DNA of 64,000 bases from sequence record NC_005066.1; one strand, written 5' to 3'. Of the stretch, positions 20,834 through 21,532 are shown piece after piece (within the stretch, counting starts at the first letter, position 1; the number at the start of each line of letters is the position of its first letter). A model generated the notes under the pieces. That model ran no database searches and was not told the origin of the DNA. It saw only the letters and a list, made by a program, of their open reading frames with translations. The position numbers and the translations under genes were made by a program. Source of the stretch: Escherichia phage RB49.

Positions 20834-21532
20834 CTAACCACGGGTATAGTGTTCCAGAACAACTGTCAGATGAATATATTCTAATAGATCTTTCCAAAAG
20901 TCAACATCTGGTTCTTCCGGCATACCGTTTTTCTTTGCCTCTTCACGCGCGAGTTTAACACGCTCGTAGAGATCTTTCAATTCTTCCCGCACATTATCAA
21001 AGGTTCTTTCTCCTAACTTACACGCTAAAATAGAAGAACGTCGCGCGAGCGGGAATTGTAGATCACCTGTCTGATAGATTTCAAGTAGTTGATAACCAAC
21101 ACGCAGAGCATGAGAAAGATCTTTCCAGTTACTGAAATACTTTTCAGATTTGGCTACCTGTTTCTTGAGATAACCAGACAAACCCCACATACCAACATGA
21201 TAGAATTTATCGCGATGTGTTCGGATGTATTCCCATTCTCTGGAGGATTCAACCAACATGTTACTAGGCGCGTGCACCATGTCAATAGCGCCGATATCGC
21301 CTTTACATGCCAGATTGATAAACCGTTTTAGACTGAACATATTAACGTCAATATCGTCTTTGGTGTTCTTAATACCTTGACCGCTAGTGCTTTGGTCATA
21401 GTGTTCTTTCATAGATCCTAAGATAATTTCTTTCGCAGTCGGAACAAAGATACCACGATAATCTTTATCTGAATTTTCAGTATCAAGACCGTACAAGTGA
21501 GATCCGAAGACCATTTTAACCATTGTATGCAT
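20834..21532 (-). CDS. Pol-beta-superfamily nucleotidyltransferase, putative
   Basis: 232 aa; N-terminal FGSHLYGLDTENSDKDYRGIF fits the hG[GS]-x9-13-DhD nucleotidyltransferase motif; helical C-terminal half. Confidence 0.5.
   Translation of the reverse strand: MHTMVKMVFGSHLYGLDTENSDKDYRGIFVPTAKEIILGSMKEHYDQSTSGQGIKNTKDDIDVNMFSLKRFINLACKGDIGAIDMVHAPSNMLVESSREWEYIRTHRDKFYHVGMWGLSGYLKKQVAKSEKYFSNWKDLSHALRVGYQLLEIYQTGDLQFPLARRSSILACKLGERTFDNVREELKDLYERVKLAREEAKKNGMPEEPDVDFWKDLLEYIHLTVVLEHYTRG

Follow-up and report, generated by a model that had tools for sequence, protein, structure and literature searches.

What does the small nucleotidyltransferase-like protein encoded at 20834..21532 in Escherichia phage RB49 act on, and what does the phage gain from it? 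The window analysed here is the whole stretch of 64,000 nucleotides from NC_005066.1, and the gene is an ATG-started open reading frame (ORF) on the minus strand for a protein of 232 aa beginning with MHTMVKMVFGSHLYGLDTENSDKDYRGIF, as given by the ORF listing and its translation. The original prediction had left the substrate open and had brought up counter-defence; from membership in the RlaP family and the RNA-repair operons around cellular relatives we can narrow this to RNA 3'-OH ends, a function that we infer. On balance we favour the reading that the protein is an RlaP-family orthologue of T4 NrdC.11, which would restore the missing nucleotides of damaged RNA ahead of ligation.

RNA repair has its original model in T4-like phages. 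Nucleases of the RloC type cut tRNA and in addition remove a nucleotide, so that plain religation by the phage enzymes Pnkp and RNA ligase 1 (Rnl1) gives a dead tRNA, and as a counter to this move in the phage-host arms race RlaP enzymes have been proposed. The gene itself is already annotated as nrdC.11, and its family has since been characterised biochemically; the annotation is correct but routine. The new point is that Krischvirus phages carry a naturally minimal enzyme, without the insert of the T4-type orthologue.

Gene, family and fold

The gene, its domains and its conserved residues are located as follows:

20834..21532, minus strand: coding sequence including the stop codon, RlaP-family nucleotidyltransferase (Krischvirus nrdC.11), from the ORF, the identity to Phi1 nrdC.11 and PF10127
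21197..21532, minus strand: N-terminal Pol-beta nucleotidyltransferase domain, residues ~1-112, from strands 2-9, 23-30, 44-48, 61-67 and 93-96 of the AlphaFold model and from fold matches
20843..21187, minus strand: C-terminal helical domain, residues 116-230, from the AlphaFold model and hhalign
21500..21505, minus strand: G10-S11, hG[GS] motif, from conservation in 148 homologues
21461..21469, minus strand: D22-K23-D24, metal-binding DxD motif, from conservation across homologues and three RlaP forms
21347..21349, minus strand: D62, putative third catalytic carboxylate on strand 61-67, invariant and on a modelled strand
21122..21124, minus strand: K137, conserved with canonical RlaP
21101..21103, minus strand: R144, conserved with canonical RlaP

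Judged by sequence profiles, the 232-aa protein almost certainly belongs to the RlaP family. It matched PF10127 (RlaP, "RNA repair pathway DNA polymerase beta family") with 54.1 bits and E = 2.3e-14 (gathering score 23), residues 7-191 falling on profile positions 24-198, and PHROG 388 ('nucleotidyltransferase') with E = 2e-79. An exhaustive HMMER scan yielded 3559 representative homologues at E <= 1e-3, and tblastn located homologues in 1619 phage records, mainly of Straboviridae and also of Bacillus, Mycobacterium and Gordonia phages. Searches with the 232-aa protein gave no match in NCBIfam and a noise-level match only in PADLOC, and PDB sequence searches returned nothing meaningful (haemoglobin, SAMTOR and troponin, all at E > 0.03), whether the query was the 232-aa protein alone or a profile of 148 sequences. 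Furthermore, short-form phage proteins, i.e. those without the insert, were compared by hhalign with canonical RlaP, for which genes beside rtcB in three bacterial loci (L044, L066 and L081) stood in for the Pseudomonas enzymes PfRlaP and PaRlaP. The two aligned with a probability of 96.7% (E = 4.6e-10) over residues 3-158, and with the conserved K137 and R144 the homology runs past the nucleotidyltransferase core into the helical domain. G10, G15, S21, D22, D24, D62, K137 and R144 are invariant in the alignment of short phage, long and canonical RlaP forms; among the 148 homologues, G10 is invariant and S11, D22 and D24 are each conserved in at least 90%.

The fold had originally been called that of a minimal Pol-beta nucleotidyltransferase followed by a helical domain, and the PF10127 match, the AlphaFold model and the fold searches show this call to be right. 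The AlphaFold2 model built on 148 homologues (predicted local distance difference test, pLDDT, 96.7; predicted template modelling score, pTM, 0.91) contains five helices over residues 116-230 (116-131, 136-155, 165-172, 178-201 and 210-230), the last of them a long C-terminal helix. The signature hG[GS]-x(9-13)-DhD, which had been read from the N-terminal peptide, is present as F9-G10-S11, ten residues and D22-K23-D24. Strand 2-9 leads into G10-S11, strand 23-30 opens with D22-x-D24, and strand 61-67 contains D62, which in the model is the classical Pol-beta nucleotidyltransferase layout. Within a PDB set that excludes the PfRlaP crystal structure, HalB, 3c18, LinB and kanamycin nucleotidyltransferase come nearest among solved folds, none of them being a close relative, and BFVD holds many viral look-alikes with template modelling (TM) scores of 0.7-0.83.

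At the nucleotide level, the DNA of the window is 98-99% identical to 57 Krischvirus genomes (Phi1, GEC-3S and other RB49-like Straboviridae), the same range applying to Phi1 nrdC.11, and RefSeq labels the same gene of Phi1 nrdC.11 with the product "nucleotidyltransferase". The T4 orthologue of the 232-aa Krischvirus protein is NrdC.11, whose COG3541 nucleotidyltransferase assignment goes back to 2006 (PMC1524935). Homologues of NrdC.11 in GenBank phage records are often mislabelled 'thioredoxin', 'glutaredoxin nrdC' or 'putative HNH homing endonuclease', and their UniRef cluster bears the name 'Thioredoxin', which looks like a name spread from the nrdC gene symbol.

The short form and the T4-type insert

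Nearest relatives of the protein are the NrdC.11 proteins of Straboviridae, with 45-54% identity to the long forms. T4-type NrdC.11 comprises about 336 aa as opposed to 232 aa here, and the alignment opens a single clean gap after residue 128, where the following site is defined:

21128..21148, minus strand: junction, residues 129-135 (SEKYFSN), site of the long-form insert, from the alignment, the insert lengths and the long-form model

In the model of a long form (P0013, pLDDT 94.9), the insert (~132-240) is a discrete alpha/beta module consisting of helix 135-149, strands 154-158 and 164-168, helix 171-177, strands 184-208 and helix 213-235, which sits between helices one and two of the helical domain and has the near-invariant residues Y131, R230 and D241 tied to it. 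It is present in 143 of the 148 representative sequences (~97%), in which 70-130 residues span the junction compared with 12 in the 232-aa protein. Searches with the insert sequence gave only DUF1409 below cutoff in Pfam and nothing in the PDB.

The five short forms occur in at least three separate places (the 232-aa protein together with P0002; P0154; P0141 together with P0232), and as each of these groups has long forms as its nearest relatives, the insert has been lost repeatedly, at least three times independently. The PF10127 alignment of the short form runs without a gap from profile position 24 to 198, while that of long forms ends at about 142; the short form thus represents the canonical RlaP architecture and the insert a subfamily accessory. 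Compared with Phi1 nrdC.11, there are 12 nucleotide differences, ten of them synonymous and the remaining two located in one codon (V94I), and a metagenomic contig (L086) carries a 57%-identical short orthologue within the same endolysin-vs.8-vs.6 synteny. Considering this synonymous bias and the preserved synteny of the diverged orthologue, the short form is under purifying selection. A minimal enzyme of 232 aa that can be modelled with confidence is moreover handy for biochemistry and for asking what the T4-type insert contributes.

Proposed RNA repair and its alternatives

The activity of the family was described in a December 2025 preprint (Carruthers, Fatma, Huang; doi 10.64898/2025.12.29.696909) on RlaP of Pseudomonas fluorescens and P. 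aeruginosa, encoded between rtcB and rtcA. PfRlaP and PaRlaP added one or two nucleoside monophosphates (NMPs) or the corresponding deoxy forms (dNMPs) onto RNA 3'-OH ends, preferred Mn2+, were inactive on DNA and proteins, and favoured the 5' half of nicked tRNA over free 3' ends; they also labelled rRNA-sized and full-length tRNA-sized species and showed little specificity for the nucleoside triphosphate (NTP). When RlaP acted ahead of ligation by T4 Rnl1, aminoacylation was partly regained for a tRNA lacking one anticodon-loop nucleotide. The preprint authors propose RlaP as the antidote to "smart" ribotoxins, e.g. RloC, and T4 NrdC.11 is included in their similarity network (cluster 5 of PF10127; doi 10.64898/2025.12.29.696909). 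The same repair role was predicted for jumbo phages by Iyer et al. (PMC7824862), with a distribution of RlaP that mirrors that of RNA ligases.

Genomic context points in the same direction. Prokaryotic genomes were scanned with one genome per species, neighbouring ORFs being called and clustered and the recurrent ones typed by Pfam, and 76 loci with NrdC.11-type relatives (31-49% identity) were obtained. RNA-repair neighbours accompany 11 of the roughly 74 cellular loci of this subfamily. L044 (Nitrosospira) shows the order TROVE/Ro60, RtcB, RtcA, NrdC.11-type RlaP and canonical RlaP; L066 (Methyloligella) resembles it without RtcA and with a divergent sigma-54 activator, and L081 and L083 are similar. 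Hen1-Pnkp is encoded directly upstream of the NrdC.11-type gene in L063, L064 and L061, TROVE directly upstream in L014, and RtcB lies within 5 kb in L015 and L028. Together, homology and this context of the cellular members make RNA 3'-end transfer the best-supported activity, and by analogy the 232-aa protein probably performs it.

A long NrdC.11-type gene and a canonical RlaP gene stand in tandem after rtcB in L044 (6001-7743), L066 (6001-7781) and L081 (5797-7811, a metagenome-assembled genome of Acetobacteraceae). This tandem arrangement in bacterial rtcBA operons suggests that the two subfamilies are not redundant, and phages may keep one of the two.

Putative partners are available in the close relative Phi1, which encodes an intact Pnkp (pseT; kinase and HAD phosphatase) and a T4-type Rnl1 (rnlA). 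Phi1 ORF229 (L006 17341-17817, outside the window; 158 aa) is a stand-alone protein whose one match is to the HAD phosphatase domain of Pnkp (PF25109, 50.6 bits), a second copy beside the full pseT. Phi1 57B (L005 1229-1693), an 'RNA ligase' in RefSeq, is no RNA ligase but a homologue of the Acb1 anti-CBASS phosphodiesterase (PF23474, 174 bits), with a counterpart in the window in the 156-aa ORF at 28725..29195 on the minus strand, and should therefore not be counted as an RNA-repair partner.

In the mechanism that we propose, D22, D24 and D62 would hold two divalent ions, preferentially Mn2+ as in the characterised enzymes, and one or two NMPs would be transferred from NTP, without template, to the 3'-OH of a broken RNA, in the typical case a tRNA cleaved in its anticodon loop, whose 5' half would be extended. 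The added nucleotides would replace those trimmed by host anticodon nucleases that cut and excise (RloC-type), after which phage Pnkp and Rnl1 could reseal a functional tRNA. For the phage enzyme, this specific role against RloC-type nucleases, a published hypothesis, is put forward by analogy and only tentatively.

Several points weigh against a repair function. RNA-repair genes flank just those 11 of about 74 cellular loci, most of the others being without conserved neighbours, and no RNA-repair or RNA-ligase neighbours were seen at the homologues examined in Mycobacterium, Bacillus and Gordonia phages. The phage gene is not adjacent to pseT and rnlA, which in Phi1 are found some 75 kb away from it and outside the window. 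The activity of the family has been measured only for PfRlaP and PaRlaP, in a preprint that is not peer-reviewed, and the canonical RlaP proteins standing in for them are 15-22% identical to the phage protein. T4 stays viable in the laboratory when its nrdC.11-mobD.3 segment is deleted (PMC9825161). Finally, with the insert and its near-invariant Y, R and D absent, the substrate range of the 232-aa protein may differ.

One alternative is action on RNA 3' ends for another purpose, namely rebuilding of the trimmed tRNA 3'-CCA or tailing of transcripts, from host or phage, with an effect on how stable they are. The labelling of rRNA-sized and full-length tRNA-sized species, the low NTP specificity and the distance of nrdC.11 from pseT and rnlA would agree with this, and for transcript tailing also the regB endoribonuclease gene 0.8 kb downstream; we nevertheless regard it as unlikely, given that the characterised enzymes favour the nicked 5' half, that the cellular context of the subfamily consists of RtcB, Pnkp and Ro60 repair operons, and that the proximity to regB is not kept in T4-type phages, whose gene is flanked by nrdC.10 and genes of the mobD region. 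Even less probable is a counter-defence nucleotidyltransferase acting on something other than RNA, either making an oligonucleotide or a mimic of a nucleotide signal (HalB-like oligo-dA that keeps a Hailong-type channel closed) or AMPylating a protein of the host, for example a HEPN RNase toxin (in the manner of MNT antitoxin or DrrA). Although HalB is the nearest solved fold, identity is 12% and TM 0.4-0.47, sequence profiles place the protein in RlaP and not in the HalB or MNT families, the PADLOC search gave no match above noise, and characterised RlaP labelled neither proteins nor DNA. Moreover, neither the ORF list of the window nor Pfam revealed a HalA-like or HEPN partner gene near nrdC.11. 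An MNT antitoxin of the MNT-HEPN type was rejected as an identity, there being no adjacent HEPN gene and the 232-aa protein carrying its own fused helical domain in contrast to a minimal nucleotidyltransferase of ~100-140 aa.

Loss of the insert raises two further alternatives. That a deletion of about 100 aa inactivated the enzyme and left a functionless, decaying ORF would accord with the insert and its near-invariant residues in ~97% of the 148 closest representatives and with the dispensability of the T4 orthologue in the laboratory, yet the catalytic residues and those invariant across the family are all preserved, the excision falls cleanly on the domain boundaries of a confident model, and the remaining length is that of canonical RlaP with ungapped coverage of PF10127 24-198. 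As substitutions are in addition strongly biased towards synonymous ones, short forms arose at least three times, and one is kept in a lineage diverged to 57% identity, we consider such a remnant extremely improbable, and a pseudogene was rejected on conservation. A re-specialised Krischvirus short form, in which insert loss turned the enzyme towards making or extending short oligonucleotides as decoys for oligonucleotide-sensing defences (HalB/Hailong-like) or towards a defence RNA or protein target in place of tRNA repair, also seems improbable, if less so than decay. We retain nucleotide restoration on damaged RNA before ligation as the likeliest role of nrdC.11.

Neighbouring genes and known systems

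The original prediction had placed the gene close to a macro-domain gene and a GrcA-like gene, in a block of accessory functions. These neighbours were borne out by Pfam: vs.6, directly upstream (21619..22035), matches Gly_radical and encodes a GrcA-like glycyl-radical protein, and tk.4 (18040..18495) matches Macro. Their proximity is real, but we found no evidence for a functional link. An M15 endolysin gene is located upstream and regB (19556..20020) downstream, and nrdC.11, vs.6, tk.4, regB and the endolysin gene share one strand in an nrdC-tk-vs-regB arm, which in T4 contains early genes; early timing of this neighbourhood is inferred from T4. No tRNA genes were found within the window.

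Signals upstream of nrdC.11, of which the last two overlap in the vs.6/nrdC.11 spacer, are:

21541..21544, minus strand: Shine-Dalgarno GAGG, 8 nt 5' of the ATG, read from the sequence
21563..21591, minus strand: sigma-70-like promoter candidate TTGGCT-17-TATGAT (with TG), consensus match only
21585..21609, minus strand: terminator-like hairpin with a 10-bp stem followed by a T run, in the vs.6/nrdC.11 spacer, consensus match only

On the metagenomic contig L086, an HNH/NUMOD4 homing endonuclease gene (3951-4547) lies between vs.6 and the RlaP gene, i.e. at the site of this terminator-plus-promoter spacer. Directly downstream of nrdC.11 are three small ORFs on the minus strand (19983..20375, 20376..20636 and 20618..20812, with 130, 86 and 64 aa), which are the counterparts of Phi1 ORF095-097. 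Pfam gave zero matches for them; judging from their common motif, ...DD.G..I.I.L..GC(S/A)HL.G..W.L(V/I), they look like paralogues of one another. A distant RlaP homologue, gp35 of the temperate Mycobacterium phage Vetrix (L007 3968-4714), is encoded in the integrase/immunity-repressor region beside an Lsr2-like gene, a position typical of prophage-expressed defence or accessory genes.

Among known systems, Pseudomonas RlaP has the Pfam family, the plan of nucleotidyltransferase plus helical domain, the insert-free length and the G, S, DxD, D, K and R positions in common with the 232-aa protein, and addition of one or two NMPs to RNA 3'-OH is presumed for both. However, the Pseudomonas gene belongs to an rtcB-rtcA operon, whereas the 232-aa protein is phage-encoded outside any RNA-ligase operon, at that low identity to canonical RlaP. 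T4 NrdC.11 shares the catalytic residues and the general early-gene arm with the Krischvirus protein but possesses the ~100-aa alpha/beta insert with its near-invariant Y, R and D, and its gene is located between nrdC.10 and the mobD region instead of between vs.6 and the regB block.

Hailong HalB (PDB 9dbh/9dbj), at the identity and TM given above, is alike at the level of the generic fold, without a detectable sequence-profile relationship; it belongs to a defence system, in which the HalA channel is its partner, and produces tyrosine-primed poly-dA, whereas nrdC.11 has no such partner and, with vs.6 and the small ORFs as its neighbours, does not form a two-gene HalA operon. Kanamycin (ANT(4')), LinB and streptomycin/spectinomycin nucleotidyltransferases, of the families named in the original prediction, share the fold class and the two-domain arrangement, but with TM of only 0.27-0.43 and 9-14% identity; an aminoglycoside or lincosamide resistance enzyme was rejected, as the likeness is at fold level only and nothing points to antibiotic substrates.
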